From contig JBEIPA010000013.1 in NCBI GenBank assembly GCA_040377305.1, positions 64,001 through 128,000 on the forward strand: a DNA stretch of 64,000 bases. Direction: 5' to 3'. The notes beneath the pieces are model-generated. The model had not been told where the DNA came from. It searched no databases and saw only the letters and a list, made by a program, of their open reading frames with translations. Of this stretch, positions 7,924-17,371 are shown one piece after another. Origin of the DNA: Flavobacteriales bacterium (GTDB lineage Bacteria > Bacteroidota > Bacteroidia > Palsa-965). A program made the position numbers and the translations under genes. The stretch's first letter is position 1; each line of letters opens with the position of its first letter.

Positions 7924-8241
7924 GTGAAACGACAAGCACTTTTATTGCCATCCGCAAAAAATATTCTCAGCGAAATGGGAGAGAACCTTCGTCTCGCACG
8001 TCTGAGAAGAAAGATAAGCGCACAACAAGTAGCGGAACGCGCAAACATCAGCCGATCTACTTTGTGGATGATTGAAAAAGGTTCTCCGGCTGTTGCAATG
8101 GGTGCGTACATGCAGGTTTTATTTGTGCTTGGGCTGGAAAATGATCTCGGCAAAGTTGCGGCAGATGACGTGCTCGGAAAGAAGCTTCAGGATCTGGAGT
8201 TAATGCCAAAAGAGCGAGCACCTAAACGTCCGAAGGAATGA
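7924..8241 (+). CDS. XRE-family HTH regulator / HipB-like antitoxin
   Basis: LRLARLRRKISAQQVAERANISRSTL..IEKG HTH; ATGA overlap with the HipA-family gene. Confidence 0.85.
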   Translation: MKRQALLLPSAKNILSEMGENLRLARLRRKISAQQVAERANISRSTLWMIEKGSPAVAMGAYMQVLFVLGLENDLGKVAADDVLGKKLQDLELMPKERAPKRPKE

Positions 8242-9479
8242 ATCCGATTGAAGTTTGGTCGCAATGGGTGGGAATGAATGAAGCAGCACGCGTTGGGCTT
8301 ATTCATGCAGGAGAATCGCGCGGACAAGAAATACTTTCGTTTGAATACGATGCAAAGTGGATGAAGACACGTCATCACGTGCTTGATCCTTATTTGCAGT
8401 ATTATTCCGGGAAATTTTTTCCGCGCAGCGGTTCTGAAAGCTTTGGTTTGTTTCTCGATTCTTCTCCTGGAGATTGGGGACGCATGCTGCACAACAAATA
8501 CGAACAAGTGCTCGCGCGAAAAGAGAAACGCGAAGTAAGTAAGCTGCATGCATCCGGTTTTCTTGTGCGTGTATTCGATTACTATCGTCAGGGTGCATTG
8601 CGTTTCAGGTTTAACGCAAATGAAGAATTCGTAACGAGTGATGAACAATTCTTCCTGCCGACGTTTGCTTCGCTGAAAGAACTCGAACGTGCTAGTGTAA
8701 TTTGCAGCAACGAGCACGTCAATGACAAAGATTTTCCGACTGCAATAGAAGCACTTATTCATCCCGGCGGCGCGCTGGGAGGGAAGCGTCCGAAAGTAAA
8801 TGTGATTGACGACGAGTGGCAAATGTGGATGGCAAAATTCCCATCACCGCAAGATCAGTCTGACATTGGCGGTTGGGAATTTGTGGCACACACCTTGGCT
8901 GGACTCGCAGGAATAAATACGAGTTCAGTACTGCTGAAAAAATCGAACGCTCATCATCACACTTTTCTTTCGCAACGTTTCGATCGAAATCTGAAAGGAG
9001 AACGAATTCATTTTGCATCGGCCATGACTATGTTGGGTTATGCCAATGAAAATGATTCGCTGCAACGCGTAAGTTATCTCAACATGGCAGAGTTTCTCAT
9101 GCGGCATGGTTCAGATGTAAATCGCGATCTGGAAGAGTTGTGGAGAAGAATTGTGTTCAACATTGCAATCAGAAACACGGATGATCATTTACGTAATCAC
9201 GGTTTCTTGCTCAACGATCGTGGTTGGGAACTGTCACCTGCATTTGATCTGAATCCAACGGGTGGAGATTCACTTTCACTCAACATTTCGGAGAGCGACA
9301 GTTCATGCGATTTCGAACTCGCGATGCGTGTGGCGCCTTATTTCCGGATCAGCGACGCGCGTGCGAAGAGCATTATGCAGATTGTGAAAGTTGCAGTGGG
9401 GCAGTGGAGAAAAGTTGCGTCCGATGCCGGCCTTACAAAAGCCGAGATCGAACGCATGAGTAGTTCTTTTGAAAAGTAA
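8238..9479 (+). CDS. HipA-family kinase toxin
   Basis: LGG.RPK loop, RFDR, NTDDHLRNHGF and LSPAFDLNP motifs. Confidence 0.9.
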   Translation: MNPIEVWSQWVGMNEAARVGLIHAGESRGQEILSFEYDAKWMKTRHHVLDPYLQYYSGKFFPRSGSESFGLFLDSSPGDWGRMLHNKYEQVLARKEKREVSKLHASGFLVRVFDYYRQGALRFRFNANEEFVTSDEQFFLPTFASLKELERASVICSNEHVNDKDFPTAIEALIHPGGALGGKRPKVNVIDDEWQMWMAKFPSPQDQSDIGGWEFVAHTLAGLAGINTSSVLLKKSNAHHHTFLSQRFDRNLKGERIHFASAMTMLGYANENDSLQRVSYLNMAEFLMRHGSDVNRDLEELWRRIVFNIAIRNTDDHLRNHGFLLNDRGWELSPAFDLNPTGGDSLSLNISESDSSCDFELAMRVAPYFRISDARAKSIMQIVKVAVGQWRKVASDAGLTKAEIERMSSSFEK

Positions 9480-11284: not shown

Positions 11285-13204
11285 TCAGATTTCCGCACCC
11301 AGGATGAGAATGTCGTCGGGTTGCTCGAGTTTGTTGCTGTGTTCGCTGATGTACTTGTCGATTTCAGATTGAGATTTCAGGGCTGCCAGTAGATCATACA
11401 CATGACGCTGGTCGGAACCCGGGAGGGAAGTCAACCCATCGCTAAACAGGAATAGCTTATCAGACTTCTGCAGTTCCACAGAATTTCTCGTGAAGGGATT
11501 TACCGTTCCGCTCACCGAACCCGCACGTTGTTCTGCACCACGATATTCAATCACCTGATTTTTGCGCACCAGAATCACCGGCATTCCCGCAGAAGAGAAA
11601 TGCATTTCTGTTTTCTCCTTGTTGAATCTGCAAACAGCAATTTCAATGGTATCAGAAACGAGTGGAGTACTTTCCGCAATGCCGTCGTGTTGCAATGCAC
11701 CGCGCACTTTCATGTTGAGCTCATAAAGAATTTCTTCGGGTGCATGAACTTTGTTCTCAATCACAATTCCGTTGAGGAAAGAAGCTGCCATTACACTCAT
11801 GAATCCGCCAGGCACTCCATGGCCGGAGCAATCGCCAAGCGCAATGAAATAGTCGGATTCGGTTTCTGCAATCCACCAGAAGTCGCCACTAACAATTGAG
11901 CGAGGTCGATTATATAGAAATCCTTTCGGAAAAATGGCCTTCAGCTGGCTTTCGATCGGAGTAACCGCTTCCTGAATTCTTCTTGCGTAGTTAATACTAT
12001 CGGTGATGTCTTTGTTCTTCGATTCTATGATTGCTTTCTGCTGTTCGAGAACAAGTCCTGCTTTCTTCCCCATTTTAATTCGTCCGAACAAAAGAATGGC
12101 AATCACAATGAATCCAACCGATGAAACAATTCCGCCTGCAACATAAATTTTCTGTTGACGATCATCTTCTTCCGCAATGGCAAGTGCCTTCTCCGTTTTT
12201 TCTTTGTCGTAGAGCGTTTCCAGATTCTTGATGTTTTGCTGATTCTTTGTGCTGAGAATACTGTCTTTCAAAGACTGATAGCTCGTATAGTATTCAAGCG
12301 CGAGTTTATCGTTGCCGGATGCTTCATACAACTCAGCAATACGTCGTAGTTGGTTCATGCGCGAATCACGAACATTTAAACGAGTTGAAATGCTCAAAGC
12401 AGAGTCCATGGCGCTTAATGCCGCCGGATAATTTTTCTGAAATTCCCGCAGCTCAGAAAGCGAAAGCCAGAGTGCCATCATGTCATACGGATTCTCTTCG
12501 TTGCGCGCAATCACGAAAGCTGCATTCATCAGTGAATCTGATGTCTTAATATTCCCTTCCGTCGCCAGACAATATGCTGTTCCGGCCATATTTGCAGCGA
12601 TCCAGTGTTTGAGATCATATTTCTCCGCTGCAAGCAGTCCTTCATGGAAATATTCTTTGGCGAGAAGAAAACTATCTACTTCAATGTTGTGGCGACCCAG
12701 AAAATTCGCGATGGGAGCAATTCCGCTCTGGTCGTCTCCTGCGCGATAAAATGCGTAGGCCATGCGTTGGTATTTCAGGCTGAGTTCAAGACTGTCCATC
12801 GATTCGTAGACAAGTGCGAGGTTATGATAGGATCCGCCAACATCACTCGGGTCAGCGTCCGACCCGTCTTTAAGACGTATGGATTGCAGATGCGCATTGA
12901 TGGCTTCCGGATAACGACCCATATCGGCATAAATAGTTCCGGCTACGTTTTGTGCAGCGGCTTCTCCCAATACATTGCCTTGCTCGCGGGCAATGGCAAG
13001 AGCACGATTGACAATCACCAGTCCGGTGTCCAGATCGTGGTAGCTGATGTCCCACGCAAGCGCAGTCAGCGCAACTACAATCTGCGAATCGGATTCGTTC
13101 AGCGTTAACAGCAACTTTGAAAGCGAATCAATGTCCTTCTTGTCCTGTGCCTGCAAGCTTGCGACAGAAAAAATCAGAAGGAATATGTAAATCAGCTTCT
13201 TCAT
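11285..13204 (-). CDS. Periplasmic TPR + TM + degenerate SpoIIE/PP2C-type phosphatase
   Basis: Signal peptide, TPR repeats, TM helix, DSINYARRIQ, SGDFWW, DCSGHGVPG, SDG, DD. The DGMD and DQFGG motifs are altered. Confidence 0.85.
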   Translation of the reverse strand: MKKLIYIFLLIFSVASLQAQDKKDIDSLSKLLLTLNESDSQIVVALTALAWDISYHDLDTGLVIVNRALAIAREQGNVLGEAAAQNVAGTIYADMGRYPEAINAHLQSIRLKDGSDADPSDVGGSYHNLALVYESMDSLELSLKYQRMAYAFYRAGDDQSGIAPIANFLGRHNIEVDSFLLAKEYFHEGLLAAEKYDLKHWIAANMAGTAYCLATEGNIKTSDSLMNAAFVIARNEENPYDMMALWLSLSELREFQKNYPAALSAMDSALSISTRLNVRDSRMNQLRRIAELYEASGNDKLALEYYTSYQSLKDSILSTKNQQNIKNLETLYDKEKTEKALAIAEEDDRQQKIYVAGGIVSSVGFIVIAILLFGRIKMGKKAGLVLEQQKAIIESKNKDITDSINYARRIQEAVTPIESQLKAIFPKGFLYNRPRSIVSGDFWWIAETESDYFIALGDCSGHGVPGGFMSVMAASFLNGIVIENKVHAPEEILYELNMKVRGALQHDGIAESTPLVSDTIEIAVCRFNKEKTEMHFSSAGMPVILVRKNQVIEYRGAEQRAGSVSGTVNPFTRNSVELQKSDKLFLFSDGLTSLPGSDQRHVYDLLAALKSQSEIDKYISEHSNKLEQPDDILILGAEI

Positions 13205-13320
13205 ATTCTGATTCCTATTACGAGAACGTCATCGATGCCGACGAAGGCACCGCCTTGTCGGCATCGTGACTTCGAGTGAGCCAAAACAATATTCAGGACG
13301 TTCTCTTGATGTGTTCGCAT
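13201..13320 (-). CDS. Candidate 39-aa small ORF MRTHQENVLNIVLAHSKSRCRQGGAFVGIDDVLVIGIRI
   Basis: ATG lies 2 nt after the upstream stop, the frame is open, and its TGA overlaps the next gene's ATG (ATGA). Translation is not demonstrated. Confidence 0.35.
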   Translation of the reverse strand: MRTHQENVLNIVLAHSKSRCRQGGAFVGIDDVLVIGIRI

Positions 13321-13357
13321 GGTTATATTCTGATTCCTATTACGAGAACGTCATCGA
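13203..13357. repeat. 33-bp perfect direct repeat of a gene 3' end flanking a structured 89-bp insert (element copy 1)
   Basis: atattctgattcctattacgagaacgtcatcga at 13203-13235 and 13325-13357. Confidence 0.95.
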
Positions 13358-15287
13358 CCTGTTCATGCGAACCTTTCCATTCGCTGAAACGTTCATTGAG
13401 GATGCGTTGCTGTTCGTTGCAACTCTTGTCCGCAACCGTGCAGAGAATATCCCGCAGCTGTTTGTACTTCAGTTTTTTTCCTTGCGGGCCACCAAACTGA
13501 TCGGCATAACCATCGCTGAAGATGTAGATCATGTCGCCCGGTTCGCAATCGTGTTCGAGCAAAGTAAAAGGACGCACATCGCCCACGTATTCTCCAACCG
13601 GAAATTTATCGGCGCGGTATTCAATCACCTGATTTTTCCGGATTACCCAAAGTGGATTCATTGCGCAGGCAAAACGAAGTTTTTTCCTGTCGTTCGAGAA
13701 AGAGCACATCACCATATCCATTCCGTCTTTCAGGCCGGAGTTTTGGCCGCCAGAACGATTAAGAGCGGTGATCACTTTATCGCGTAGTTGGTTGAGAATT
13801 TCAGCCGGAGAAGAAACTTTTCGTTCCGTAATAATTTCGAAAAGAAACACGCTACCAAGCATGCTCATGAATCCACCAGGAACTCCGTGGCCGGTGCTAT
13901 CCGCTCCGGCGAGGAAAAATTCTCCATCCTGTTCGCTGCACCACCAGAAATCGCCGCTCACAATATCTTTCGCACGAGACAACACAAACGCATCAGTGAA
14001 GTTTCGGGTGAGCTGTTCGATCGAAGGTACTACGGCATCCTGAATGCGGCTTGCGTAGTTAATGCTGTCGGTAATGTCCTGATTTTTCTCTTCGATAAGC
14101 TGGCTTTGGCGTGCCGTTTCCTGATTCGTTTCCTTGCGGAATTTGTTTCGCTTGTAAAGCATGACTACAAGAAAAACCAGCACGATGAAAGCGATGATAA
14201 TTGCAATCAGGAACCATTGACGGGTATCAGCTTTACTGCTGAATAGCTCGAGTTGTTGTTTCTGTTTGTCGCTTTCAAACTTTGCTTCAAGATTGCGCTG
14301 GTGATTCAGGACGTCGTCGTTTACAATTGAATCGCGAAGCAGCATGTATTTTTTCAGGTAGAGGAGAGCGCTGTCGTATTGTTGCTCAGTCTGGTAAGCC
14401 GCGGCCAGATTGCTATACAGATCAACCACTTCTTCGCGAACACCAATCTGGCTGAAGATATTGAGGCACTGGTGCATGTATCTGATTGCACTTCTGTTTT
14501 GATTGCGGTACAGAAGAATTGCAATCTGGTTCGACATGATCTGTGCACGGGAGTATTCGTCATCCAGTGTGTCGATCATTTCCCATGCGCGGTTGATGCA
14601 AAAATCAGAGCTGTCTTCGTTGCTCATACGCGCATAACAAACGCCCAAAGCACTCCATGACATCGCCTCCACAATGCTCTCTCCCATTTTTGCTGCAAGC
14701 TGTTGAGATTTTGAGAAAGTAATTTTCGCTTCATCGAAATAGCCGGTGCGCATATACAAGGAGCCGAGGTTGACGTATGCAACGGAAAGTCCCCGTTCAT
14801 AGCCCGCTTGTTCGTAAATGTCAACAGCACGCTGCAAGGTGGAGCTCGTCATTGCCGTATCGCCCATCGATGAATACACGAGCGACATATTCATGTATGC
14901 TGTACCCGTACGACGAGGATCACCAAATTTCTCTGCTTCTTCCAGGCCCTCAATGTGTGCAGCGAGCGCTTCGTCGAACTCACCCATGTCGTTGTAGGTG
15001 GCGCCGAGAGTATTGAGACACATTATTTTTCCCAATGGGTAATTAATTTTCTTTGCAACCTTCAGTCCCTCTTGCGCATATTCAATACCCAGGGTGAGAT
15101 TGTAGTATGCGGTGTCCCACGCAACGCGATTGAAGTAGAGCACTTTTAAGGTGTCATCGGGAAGTGCTTGCAGATCGGCAACTGAACGTTTAGACGGAGC
15201 ATCCACTTTTGGCATTTGTGCACGCACTGGTATTGTTGCAAATAGCAGCAGCGAAAGCAGAATAGAAGCGCGGATGACCTGTGGCAT
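13323..15287 (-). CDS. Periplasmic TPR + TM + SpoIIE/PP2C-type phosphatase
   Basis: Signal peptide, TPRs, TM (WFLIAIIIAFIVLVFLVVML), SGDFWW, DSTGHGVPG, DGMD, SDGYADQFGG, EQVDDVLV. Confidence 0.9.
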   Translation of the reverse strand: MPQVIRASILLSLLLFATIPVRAQMPKVDAPSKRSVADLQALPDDTLKVLYFNRVAWDTAYYNLTLGIEYAQEGLKVAKKINYPLGKIMCLNTLGATYNDMGEFDEALAAHIEGLEEAEKFGDPRRTGTAYMNMSLVYSSMGDTAMTSSTLQRAVDIYEQAGYERGLSVAYVNLGSLYMRTGYFDEAKITFSKSQQLAAKMGESIVEAMSWSALGVCYARMSNEDSSDFCINRAWEMIDTLDDEYSRAQIMSNQIAILLYRNQNRSAIRYMHQCLNIFSQIGVREEVVDLYSNLAAAYQTEQQYDSALLYLKKYMLLRDSIVNDDVLNHQRNLEAKFESDKQKQQLELFSSKADTRQWFLIAIIIAFIVLVFLVVMLYKRNKFRKETNQETARQSQLIEEKNQDITDSINYASRIQDAVVPSIEQLTRNFTDAFVLSRAKDIVSGDFWWCSEQDGEFFLAGADSTGHGVPGGFMSMLGSVFLFEIITERKVSSPAEILNQLRDKVITALNRSGGQNSGLKDGMDMVMCSFSNDRKKLRFACAMNPLWVIRKNQVIEYRADKFPVGEYVGDVRPFTLLEHDCEPGDMIYIFSDGYADQFGGPQGKKLKYKQLRDILCTVADKSCNEQQRILNERFSEWKGSHEQVDDVLVIGIRI

Positions 15288-15300: not shown

Positions 15301-15316
15301 CAATTAAGTGTAGCGG

Positions 15317-15462
15317 AATCCCATTACGAGAACGTCATCCATGCTGACGAAGGACAAGCCTTGTCGGCATGGTGACTTCGAGTGAGCAAAATAAGTGTAC
15401 TGGACGCTCTCGTTCAAAGGTTCATTTTTAAAATCTAAATCCCATAACGAGAACGTCATCCA
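15317..15462. repeat. 25-bp direct repeat (1 mismatch) of a gene 3' end flanking a structured insert (element copy 2)
   Basis: aatcccat(t/a)acgagaacgtcatcca at 15317-15341 and 15438-15462; the insert core is 41/47 identical to copy 1. Confidence 0.95.
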
Positions 15463-17371
15463 CCTGCTCAAGATCCCCTCTCCATGCGTCAAATTCTTTG
15501 ACCAACCCGGCTTCCTGATTCATCATCGGTTCTTGCGCGTTCTGAAGCATGAATTCCCGCAGGCGTTTCTGCTTGTATTTTTTTCCTTTGTGGCCACCAA
15601 ACTGATCAGCGAATCCATCTGTGCTGAGATAAACACTGTCTCCTTTCTGCAGCGTAATTTCAAATTCGGTGAAAGGATCGGGTTGTGTGGTATGGCTCAA
15701 TCCTACCGGAAATTTATCCGGTCCGTGAATTTGCAGGGTGCCGTCGCGTATGTGTACAAGTGCATTATTCGCACAGGCAAAACGAAGACGACCGGAGTTG
15801 TTCAATGCGCACAACACAACATCCATTCCGTCTCGCGCCTCCTCGTTGCCTTCACGATTAAGCGAACTGATTACGTTGTGACGAACTTCATTGAGTAATT
15901 GAGCCGGACTTGTGTTCTCATGTTCTGCAAGTGCACGGTTGAGCAAGTTGATGTTGAGCAATGACATGAAAGCCCCAGGAACTCCGTGTCCAGTGCAATC
16001 AGCGACTGCGAAATAGAATTCATCCTCATGTTCTGCGCACCACCAGAAATCGCCGGAGACAATATCCTTCGGCTTGTACAGAATAAAATTCTCCGGAAGA
16101 TGCGTGTTCACCATCGTGCGTGAACCCAACAATGCCGTCTGAATTCTTCGCGCGTAGTTGATACTATCGAGGATACTTCTGTTCTGATCTTCGATTGCAT
16201 CGTATGCCTGTTTCAGTTCCACGTTTTTCAGTCGGTGAATTTCCGCTTGCTGATCGGCTTGGGCGGTAGCATGTTTCTGCTGCATTGATTTGATGCGAGT
16301 CGTCACTTCTTCACCAGTGATTTCCGCTTTGATTCGGTAACCGGTTTCGAGGTGGTCGAGGGCATTCTTGAAATCTGCTTTCGCTTTGTACAGTTCTGAC
16401 AGCAATGTGTGACACACGATTATTTTCTGCTTCAAACCGCCTTCAGCGCTGATCATTAATGCATCCTGAAGCAATTGCTCGGCCGGTCCAAAATCCGTTT
16501 GGGCGATATGAATTCTGGCGAGTTCAATTTCAGATGTAATAATCCCCGGCCAGTACTTTAGATTTTTACGGATGTTCAGCGCTTCTTCCAGGGAAAGTTT
16601 GGCTTTGGTGTTGTCTCCGCGTTTGGAGTAGATTACACCAAGATCATTTAGGACACGACTGATCGCAGTCTGGTGCCCGGTGCTCCGATATCCGGTGAGC
16701 GCTTCTTCATTTAATGCAATGGCCTCGTCGAATTCGTTACGCGCAATGTGAATGGATGCTATTCCGGAATTGATGCGTGCCAGTTGGTAATTGAGCATAT
16801 GTTTTGTCGCCACTTCCTTCGCGTGCAAAAAATAGTTCATTGCATTATCGAACTCCTGCATGTCGGAATGAAAAACACCCAACTGAAAATCAGACCACCC
16901 TATACTTTCGGGATCAAATTTCTCTGAAAGCTTGCGGGCTTCATACGCCAGTGCAAATGCTTTTTCACGCTCACCGTTCGACCAGCAGTTGAAAGCAAAC
17001 ATCTGCTTTGCAATAGCCGCTGCGAAAGATCCTGGTGCGAGACTCAGCAGTTGTTCTGCATGTTCAAACTCGGCAATTGCATCTTTCTGCCTGTTCTGCT
17101 GACGGTAATAAAAGGCAATGTAGAGTCGTGCGAAAGCTTCCAGTGTGGGATCATTTTCCCGTTGTCCCTGCGCGGCTAATTCAGAACTGAGTTTGTAGCA
17201 TTCTTCAAAAAGATAATCCGATGCGCTGGTAAGGAAGATAATCTTTATCGCCAGTTTATCTTCTTCCCCGGGGATTTCATCCAGACGATTGTTCAGCCAC
17301 TCTATAGAGAAGTACATCGGTTTGTTTAACCGTACTGCATTTCCCAATGCGCTCTGAACGCGATCGGCCAT
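15428..17371 (-). CDS. Cytoplasmic TPR + SpoIIE/PP2C-type phosphatase
   Basis: No signal peptide or TM; TPRs, SGDFWW, DCTGHGVPG, DGMD, TDGFADQFGG, EQVDDVLV. Its ATG overlaps the kbl stop (TAATG). Confidence 0.9.
   Translation of the reverse strand: MADRVQSALGNAVRLNKPMYFSIEWLNNRLDEIPGEEDKLAIKIIFLTSASDYLFEECYKLSSELAAQGQRENDPTLEAFARLYIAFYYRQQNRQKDAIAEFEHAEQLLSLAPGSFAAAIAKQMFAFNCWSNGEREKAFALAYEARKLSEKFDPESIGWSDFQLGVFHSDMQEFDNAMNYFLHAKEVATKHMLNYQLARINSGIASIHIARNEFDEAIALNEEALTGYRSTGHQTAISRVLNDLGVIYSKRGDNTKAKLSLEEALNIRKNLKYWPGIITSEIELARIHIAQTDFGPAEQLLQDALMISAEGGLKQKIIVCHTLLSELYKAKADFKNALDHLETGYRIKAEITGEEVTTRIKSMQQKHATAQADQQAEIHRLKNVELKQAYDAIEDQNRSILDSINYARRIQTALLGSRTMVNTHLPENFILYKPKDIVSGDFWWCAEHEDEFYFAVADCTGHGVPGAFMSLLNINLLNRALAEHENTSPAQLLNEVRHNVISSLNREGNEEARDGMDVVLCALNNSGRLRFACANNALVHIRDGTLQIHGPDKFPVGLSHTTQPDPFTEFEITLQKGDSVYLSTDGFADQFGGHKGKKYKQKRLREFMLQNAQEPMMNQEAGLVKEFDAWRGDLEQVDDVLVMGFRF

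Follow-up and report, generated by a model that had tools for sequence, protein, structure and literature searches.

Some integrative elements, such as e14 and phage 21 at icd, rebuild the 3′-end of the protein or tRNA gene that hosts them, and diversity-generating retroelements (DGRs) contain the C-terminal coding region of a gene twice, with a hairpin in between. The WHO elements described at the yeast FBA1 gene bring a new 3′-end for their target gene, push the old one downstream, and build tandem clusters (bioRxiv 10.1101/2020.01.20.913210). Y1 enzymes are described as employing a guide located 5′ of a hairpin foot, with the formation of single-stranded DNA circles (PMC6006769; PMC3333891). 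Here, we report a short hairpin-bearing unit that duplicates the tails of bacterial phosphatase genes and compare it with these systems.

The window, i.e. the whole stretch of 64,000 nucleotides analysed, corresponds to positions 64001-128000 of contig C11 in the genome of a Flavobacteriales bacterium (G000:C11:64001-128000). T9SS domains and the overall gene content point to class Bacteroidia. Domain searches (PF07228, TPR_12) identified three tandem TPR-SpoIIE (PP2C-type) genes on the minus strand of the window, two of which end in the unit (Table 1). In each case, a tail copy that repeats the final 11 codons of the host gene and extends from the Asp-Asp motif to the stop codon (T1) is followed by a spacer with antisense tracts and by a hairpin, the foot of which abuts a second tail (T2). 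In-frame readthrough from T1 into T2 was ruled out by the spacings of 122 and 121 nucleotides. The Rfam check proposed in the preliminary description of this DNA, performed with Rfam 15 at the gathering threshold, returned one tRNA from the window and no known structured RNA at the cassettes. Elsewhere in the window, at 7924-9479 (+), an HTH gene and a gene encoding a HipA-like kinase (HipA_C) adjoin the rplM-rpsI-rpsB-tsf cluster and likely constitute a toxin-antitoxin pair.

Table 1. Host genes and interpreted parts of the two cassette copies, in window coordinates.
Feature	Position	Strand	Basis
Host gene of copy 1: TPR-SpoIIE (PP2C-type), 654 aa, C-terminus VDDVLVIGIRI	13323..15287	-	PF07228, TPR_12
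Cassette copy 1, 122 nt: T1, spacer and hairpin; inserted at CAG GT^C GAT GAC	13235..13356	-	repeat spacing 122; orthologous site in congener G015 empty
T1 of copy 1: upstream tail copy, now the translated gene end (DDVLVIGIRI, TAA)	13323..13356	-	
G1 of copy 1: antisense tract GAGAACGUC, able to pair with either tail copy	13297..13305	-	
G2 of copy 1: 5′-arm extension; pairs over the right junction with the beginning of the tail, leaving an A and a G bulged	13263..13277	-	
Hairpin of copy 1; 3′ foot crosses from the cassette into T2 at 13235/13234	13228..13270	-	
T2 of copy 1: displaced original tail; TGA overlaps ATG of the next gene (13202-13204)	13201..13234	-	
Downstream TPR-SpoIIE paralog, 639 aa; own end without cassette	11285..13204	-	domain search
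Host gene of copy 2: TPR-SpoIIE, 647 aa, C-terminus VDDVLVMGFRF	15428..17371	-	domain search
Cassette copy 2, 121 nt, inserted at CAG GT^G GAT GAC; T1 at 15428-15461	15341..15461	-	
G1 of copy 2: 12 nt, one G-U pair	15403..15414	-	
Hairpin of copy 2; C-G change at the junction pair	15334..15376	-	
T2 of copy 2: DDVLVMGFRYT, TAA; differences from T1 mostly synonymous	15304..15340	-	

The hairpin and antisense tracts noticed in the preliminary description were recovered in both copies. The copy-1 hairpin (minus strand, 13228-13270) reads GUCA-CGAUGCCGAC-AAGGC-ggu-GCCUU-c-GUCGGCAUCG-a-UGAC. In the copy-2 hairpin (15334-15376) the arms are CCAUG/CAUGG and follow the host codon as proposed, by a C-G change at the junction; one correction concerns the inner stem, which contains a C-A mismatch (GCCGAC vs GUCAGC). 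The tracts GAGAACGUC (13297-13305) and AACGAGAGCGUC (15403-15414) are complementary to GACGUUCUC, a sequence that both tail copies contain (13344-13352 and 13222-13230). Folding z-scores were -2.7 for copy 1 and -4.1 for copy 2, with 0 of 200 shuffles equally stable in either case, and the perfect 9-nt complement in the copy-1 spacer had a shuffle p of approximately 0.01.

Partition function calculations bore out, in silico and for both window copies, that the tract can pair with either tail copy (P at least 0.90 in each state) and that the folds are mutually exclusive. With the upstream tail free, the tract paired with the upstream tail (P 0.93 and 0.97), and GUCA with the downstream copy (P 0.97 and 1.0). 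When the upstream tail was blocked, the tract shifted to the downstream copy (P 0.98 and 0.90), and the mean unpairing of the 21 nucleotides following the repeat increased from 0.51 to 0.79 and from 0.45 to 0.65, respectively. The two exclusive ensembles hence consist of G1:T1 plus G2:T2 with T1 free, and of G1:T2 with T1 blocked.

The preliminary description missed that this fold belongs to an inserted, tail-replacing cassette. In a congener (G015), the orthologue of the window gene pair retains the ATGA overlap and contains no insert, with blastn identities of 78% and 72% on either side. The ATGA overlap is likewise present at the empty sites L122, L123, and L125, and similar gene pairs in genomes G013 and G014 share it. 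Moreover, the G015 orthologue of the G000 gene on contig C10 ends with CGT ATT TAA, as does T2 and not T1 (86% and 82% on either side by blastn), and the sequence downstream of it also matches that after T2. As the empty orthologues end like T2, T2 therefore represents the original tail, pushed downstream, and it follows that at least the 3′-part of T1 arrived with the insert. Judged by these sequence comparisons, the unit is an inserted cassette that appears to have replaced the last 11 codons and displaced the original tail.

In G000, the cassette is present at 6 of the 51 SpoIIE-type gene ends, one copy lacking the hairpin and two a separate G1, and searches of this genome placed the hairpin at five SpoIIE ends exclusively. 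All six T1 use GAC GTT, present at 9 of the 51 ends, and AGA (Arg), present at 13 of them. The same hairpin is found once in G015, at a look-alike site (CAGGT^GGAG) in a dead duplicate of the metH tail: intact metH is followed by a T9SS-type cargo gene and by a metH tail relic bearing the cassette-type hairpin (L156, G015:C206:1-3560). From 35 family genomes, a covariance model with at most 150 candidates scored per genome recovered the five copies at SpoIIE ends in G000 plus the one in G015; on inspection, weak matches in G030 and G013 did not qualify as copies. A 13-mer search of the family yielded, apart from G000 and the metH copy in G015, chance coding matches only. Among the matches listed, those of a 15-mer contig scan were taxonomically scattered; they were taken as chance and left unused. 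The hairpin pattern matched twice outside G000 in 401 class genomes, both times within genes and without a tail repeat. Two matches without the 3′-arm of the hairpin were obtained in a metagenome scan, three short weak ones in a plasmid scan, and none in a viral scan. In the probable source sequencing run, the depth of the insert unitig is 9.7, as compared to 16.5 and 15.7 for the flanks. Neither circles nor empty alleles were seen in contigs, where a 33-nt exact repeat masks an empty allele. A freshwater sequencing run covers copy 2 including the insert.

Several other arrangements in G000 are recorded here in their own right. In approximately 15 unrelated genes, the last 20-120 nucleotides are found on both sides of other REP-like inserts; the two copies often differ synonymously, and antisense guides are absent (e.g. 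C44:20061+, C30:16048-, C1:9223+, C51:13966+, C10:100810+, and C22:68444+). At G000:C52:172400-173280 (-), a Y1/RAYT-like gene and a repeat doublet lie between a gene end, which we take to be that of a methylmalonyl-CoA mutase gene, and its relic copy; other tail duplications in this genome enclose ordinary cargo genes. Small GIY-YIG genes adjoin duplicated tRNA-like 3′-parts (G000:C49:161904+, C21:117+, C24:46752-), one of these being a relic with an inserted hairpin. At G000:C50:1862+, three copies of a SpoIIE tail surround inserts of heptamer repeats; the left boundary is a different one here, and there is no guide. In addition, hairpins of approximately 20 nucleotides are repeatedly inserted in loops of larger repeats (L220, L224, L229, L233, L247, and G000:C49:121950-).

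A doubled-tail pattern, defined as two Asp-Asp tails 15-140 nucleotides apart, was present in 2 of the 35 family genomes. In the class, doubled Asp-Asp tails were found in 14 of 401 genomes from 10 genera, and additionally in G018, with no hits for reversed-pattern controls. From 15 genomes, 37 elements were parsed; L305 was left unparsed, a few matches had no loci, and 24 G018 loci from one search served as background only. All 37 are short, roughly 65-165 nucleotides, and gene-less. The hairpins are unrelated between lineages, that of G018 being a REP-like repeat with 12-65 copies per genome. The right junction is nevertheless constant (RT^N GAY GAY), with a subtype in G055, G116, G176, and G313 where it lies at the second Asp. 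Arrays of three to four units occur in G055, G189, and G266. The loci L315 (G055:C14), L285, L272, L294, and L293 are near-exact tail-guide-hairpin arrays that superficially resemble CRISPR, the G055:C14 array having a 67-nt period and four tails. At L276 (G392:C22), no SpoIIE reading is discernible beyond a few codons upstream of T1, which suggests an element in a relic or in a longer decayed array.

The composition of T1 was likewise informative. Within one genome, T1 ends and spacers are common to paralogs, whereas upstream DNA and T2 diverge; in two G214 genes, T1 and the first 20 spacer bases are identical, as opposed to 83% identity upstream and 87% in T2. When T1 was compared with the last tail in 34 elements, 183 codons were identical, 95 differed synonymously, and 28 non-synonymously, with the reservation that the search pattern itself favours conserved residues. 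Wobble identity between T1 and T2 drops along the tail from approximately 0.8 to 0.4, indicating that T1 is often a hybrid of host and element and that the crossover is not one fixed point.

The preliminary description had also considered guide-like pairing with the host gene. This idea gained support, as arm and tract vary with the host codons in the six G000 copies and in the elements of 14 other genomes. In 28 main-type elements, including four from G018 with partners placed by hand from the anchor, the 5′-arm base that faces the first base of the host is complementary to the T1 wobble base in 26, to the T2 base in 25, and to either of them in all 28, by three types of Watson-Crick pair (A-T, C-G, and G-C). 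When ranked against 93 element-free ends, pairing with the own T1 fell within the best 5% for 17 of the 37 guides and within the best 10% for 21. The other 16 elements, mainly from genus g10 and G214, lack an extended guide and show little pairing past the foot. The guides of G055 are distinct and four of five pair best with their own tail; one G214 element comprises 14 paired bases, and in G157 17 of 18 bases are paired. In G000, G2 pairs with T1 and T2 at -18.0 and -11.9 kcal/mol for the C26 copy and at -16.5 and -5.3 kcal/mol for the C21 copy. Among the 51 ends of this genome, G2 ranked its own 1-6, except for the decayed C7 copy (38), and G1 1-3. In the six aligned hairpins, 88% of the cells pair and four pairs change on both sides, the covariation score being reached by 5 of 500 shuffles; taken alone, this is weak evidence, since the copies are related.

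Structure and wobble pairs are not distributed evenly between the strands. The sense strand folds better in 27 of 36 elements and the other strand in 9, and the sense strand contains 105 G.T as compared to 39 A.C wobble pairs, where composition predicts 58%; 11 of 15 genomes lean this way and one in the opposite direction. The G.T bias is compatible with either RNA or single-stranded DNA, and the strand bias would be compatible with strand-specific guide-directed cleavage of single-stranded DNA as in IS200/IS605 and REP. Together with bulges that persist between copies, the strand bias argues for selection on a fold. Antisense pairing was found in only 1 of 15 other G000 tail duplications tested, so that the guide is particular to the SpoIIE-tail cassette family.

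We consider it somewhat more probable than not, at roughly 0.55, that the unit is a non-autonomous, gene-less tail-replacing cassette whose sense-strand fold lets the guide pair across the junction and thereby marks the sites of cutting and joining for an enzyme acting in trans. The similar inserts across Bacteroidia probably represent minute mobile elements, in which base pairing serves to mark the ends and not to switch the next gene. As the junctions read alike, one guide could pair with one tail copy and then with the other, and in the window copies the second tract would allow both tails to be paired at once. Pairing of both junctions may then delimit a small single-stranded circle made up of T1, spacer, and hairpin, which could re-insert at a paralog with matching Asp-Asp codons. 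The in-frame tail carried along would leave the host phosphatase intact, so that insertion would be safe at the best-conserved motif of a gene family with 51 members. Repeated insertion, or crossing-over between tails, might account for the tandem arrays.

The most likely catalyst would be a single-strand DNA hairpin enzyme of the Y1/HUH TnpA-REP type provided in trans, a small GIY-YIG nuclease in conjunction with host recombination being the alternative. G000 has 10 Y1, 8 GIY-YIG, 8 GxxExxY, and 9 four-helix-bundle domain matches; the hairpin lies beside none of these genes, and no enzyme was linked to the cassette in this way. Only 1 of 27 Y1, GxxExxY, or four-helix-bundle genes resides inside a tail duplication, a Y1 gene in a different duplication. 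No autonomous version was detected among inserts longer than 140 nucleotides in G000 (up to 6 kb), at 30 of 45 G015 ends (up to 1.5 kb), or with right-junction patterns in 10 genomes, the latter searches yielding short elements only and no long form. A more far-reaching version, which we put forward tentatively, is a widespread nucleic-acid-guided recombination system in which guides of 10-18 nucleotides have been naturally reprogrammed to the conserved Asp-Asp codons of individual paralogs, with one guide serving the two junctions in turn and an enzyme in trans swapping C-termini within a gene family; its targeting code would be legible in the sequence.

Among the alternatives, a by-product of homing or repair fares best, although we regard it as rather doubtful. 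A REP-like hairpin located behind one SpoIIE gene would promote nicking and ectopic recombination between paralog tails, similar to WHO homing in yeast, and template switching by a polymerase would write and re-homogenise the antisense arm; the pairing would then be a scar and the guide non-functional. Tail duplications around other repeats are indeed common in G000 (17 of 3618 genes at an identity of at least 22/30, versus 0 in two controls), T1 is frequently hybrid, and the G018 hairpin is a multicopy repeat. In addition, a double template switch would give the order tail-inverted tail-tail, and homogenisation of arms via template switching is described as able to imitate compensation (PMC8604942). 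However, copying alone would erase the bulges and internal loops that face the Asp codons and persist between copies, as well as the preference for G.T on one strand. Likewise, neither the rarity of antisense pairing in the other tail duplications of G000 nor a junction that is constant across unrelated hairpins speaks for a mere scar.

An element acting at the RNA level appears improbable. Here, a ribosome passing T1 would free the tract, which would refold on T2 and open the start of the next gene; alternatively, the 3′-hairpin could stabilise the mRNA or yield small antisense RNAs. The predicted refolding and increased unpairing in both window copies, the preference of the structure for the mRNA strand, and guides that start at the stop codon in several subtype elements are in line with this possibility. 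The translation-coupled switch suggested in the preliminary description is possible in silico at the two window copies, but it is not conserved: rough ORF calling placed a same-strand gene start within 40 nucleotides of the downstream tail for no more than 7 of the 37 elements, three of the six G000 copies among them, which renders a conserved translation switch unlikely. Moreover, the C26 copy carries both tracts yet its neighbour is convergent, the orthologous gene pair does without the unit, and multi-unit arrays and the copy in the metH relic suit mobility better. RNA-mediated mobility, by target-primed reverse transcription of mRNA 3′-ends, reverse splicing, or bridge-RNA (IS110) recombination, is very unlikely: the exact 3′-junction and the variable 5′-part, joined by homology, are what target-primed copying would be expected to leave, and the structure lies on the sense strand, but the 99.99% complete G000 has neither an RVT_1 nor an IS110 (PF01548) match, no Rfam family was obtained at the gathering threshold, the interior is too variable for a ribozyme, and the T1/T2 differences are not adenine-specific in T2.

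If the unit is a guided tail-replacing cassette, it shows how a gene-less element of approximately 100 nucleotides can reside harmlessly at the best-conserved motif of a large paralogous family and, at the same time, can shuffle C-terminal tails among paralogs. The covarying guides would represent a directly readable code for target choice. Should an enzyme read this code, it would amount to programmable single-strand recombination with a guide longer than the four-base guides of IS200/IS605 and REP. The observations also bear on the spread of REP-like hairpins without a known dedicated transposase, as stated for CGTC repeats (PMC3733652).

Within the accessible literature searched, we found no description of bacterial tail-replacing hairpin cassettes. 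The cassette shares with e14 and phage 21 the direct repeat of the gene end that flanks the insert and the intact host gene, but it has no integrase and no cargo, and an antisense guide and a hairpin are located at its junction. It differs from DGRs in that G000 has no RVT_1 match, the repeats span only approximately 34 nucleotides, and the differences are mostly synonymous; the bases at differing sites (T2: T44/C38/A37/G35; T1: A63/T39/G28/C24) do not show the adenine specificity of DGRs. The IS110 bridge-RNA elements are set apart by their DEDD recombinase, for which G000 has no match (PF01548). Read in antisense, many junctions show GTC followed by a stem, as do the CGTC-type repeats of the Ssn GIY-YIG/SRM-NTS systems (PMC11893778), and a small GIY-YIG gene in G000 is flanked by CGTC-type repeats. 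However, the published SRM pattern occurs exactly in 0 of 37 elements on either strand, and in 13 at three mismatches versus 11% for shuffles, and the wobble pairs favour the opposite strand.

With REP/BIME-TnpA-REP and IS200/IS605, the cassette has in common the short hairpin, a pairing sequence 5′ of the foot, one active strand, and tandem amplification; single-stranded DNA circles and capture of flanking gene pieces have also been proposed there (PMC3333891, PMC6006769, PMC3733652). In contrast to TnpA-REP (RAYT) systems, no GTAG/GTGG is present at the 5′-foot of the hairpin, the foot context varies with the host codon, and none of the 10 Y1 loci in G000 is flanked by the cassette hairpin. 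The guide comprises up to 18 nucleotides, is variable, and matches a coding target by Watson-Crick pairs, unlike those of REP and IS200/IS605. The single hairpin, where IS200/IS605 have subterminal hairpins at both ends, the tail repeat of approximately 34 nucleotides, where they make none, and the absence of tnpA/tnpB inside further separate the cassette from IS200/IS605. Like WHO, the cassette supplies a new 3′-end to its target and displaces the old one, as indicated by the empty orthologues in G015 that end like T2 and by the T1 and spacer that paralogs have in common. WHO elements, however, are kilobases long, encode their own endonuclease, and replace approximately 400 bp, and no hairpin or antisense guide is described for them, whereas the cassette spans roughly 65-165 nucleotides, contains no gene or endonuclease, and would move among paralogs. 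The cassette resembles WHO in its outcome and the Y1/REP elements in its anatomy, but it belongs to neither group.
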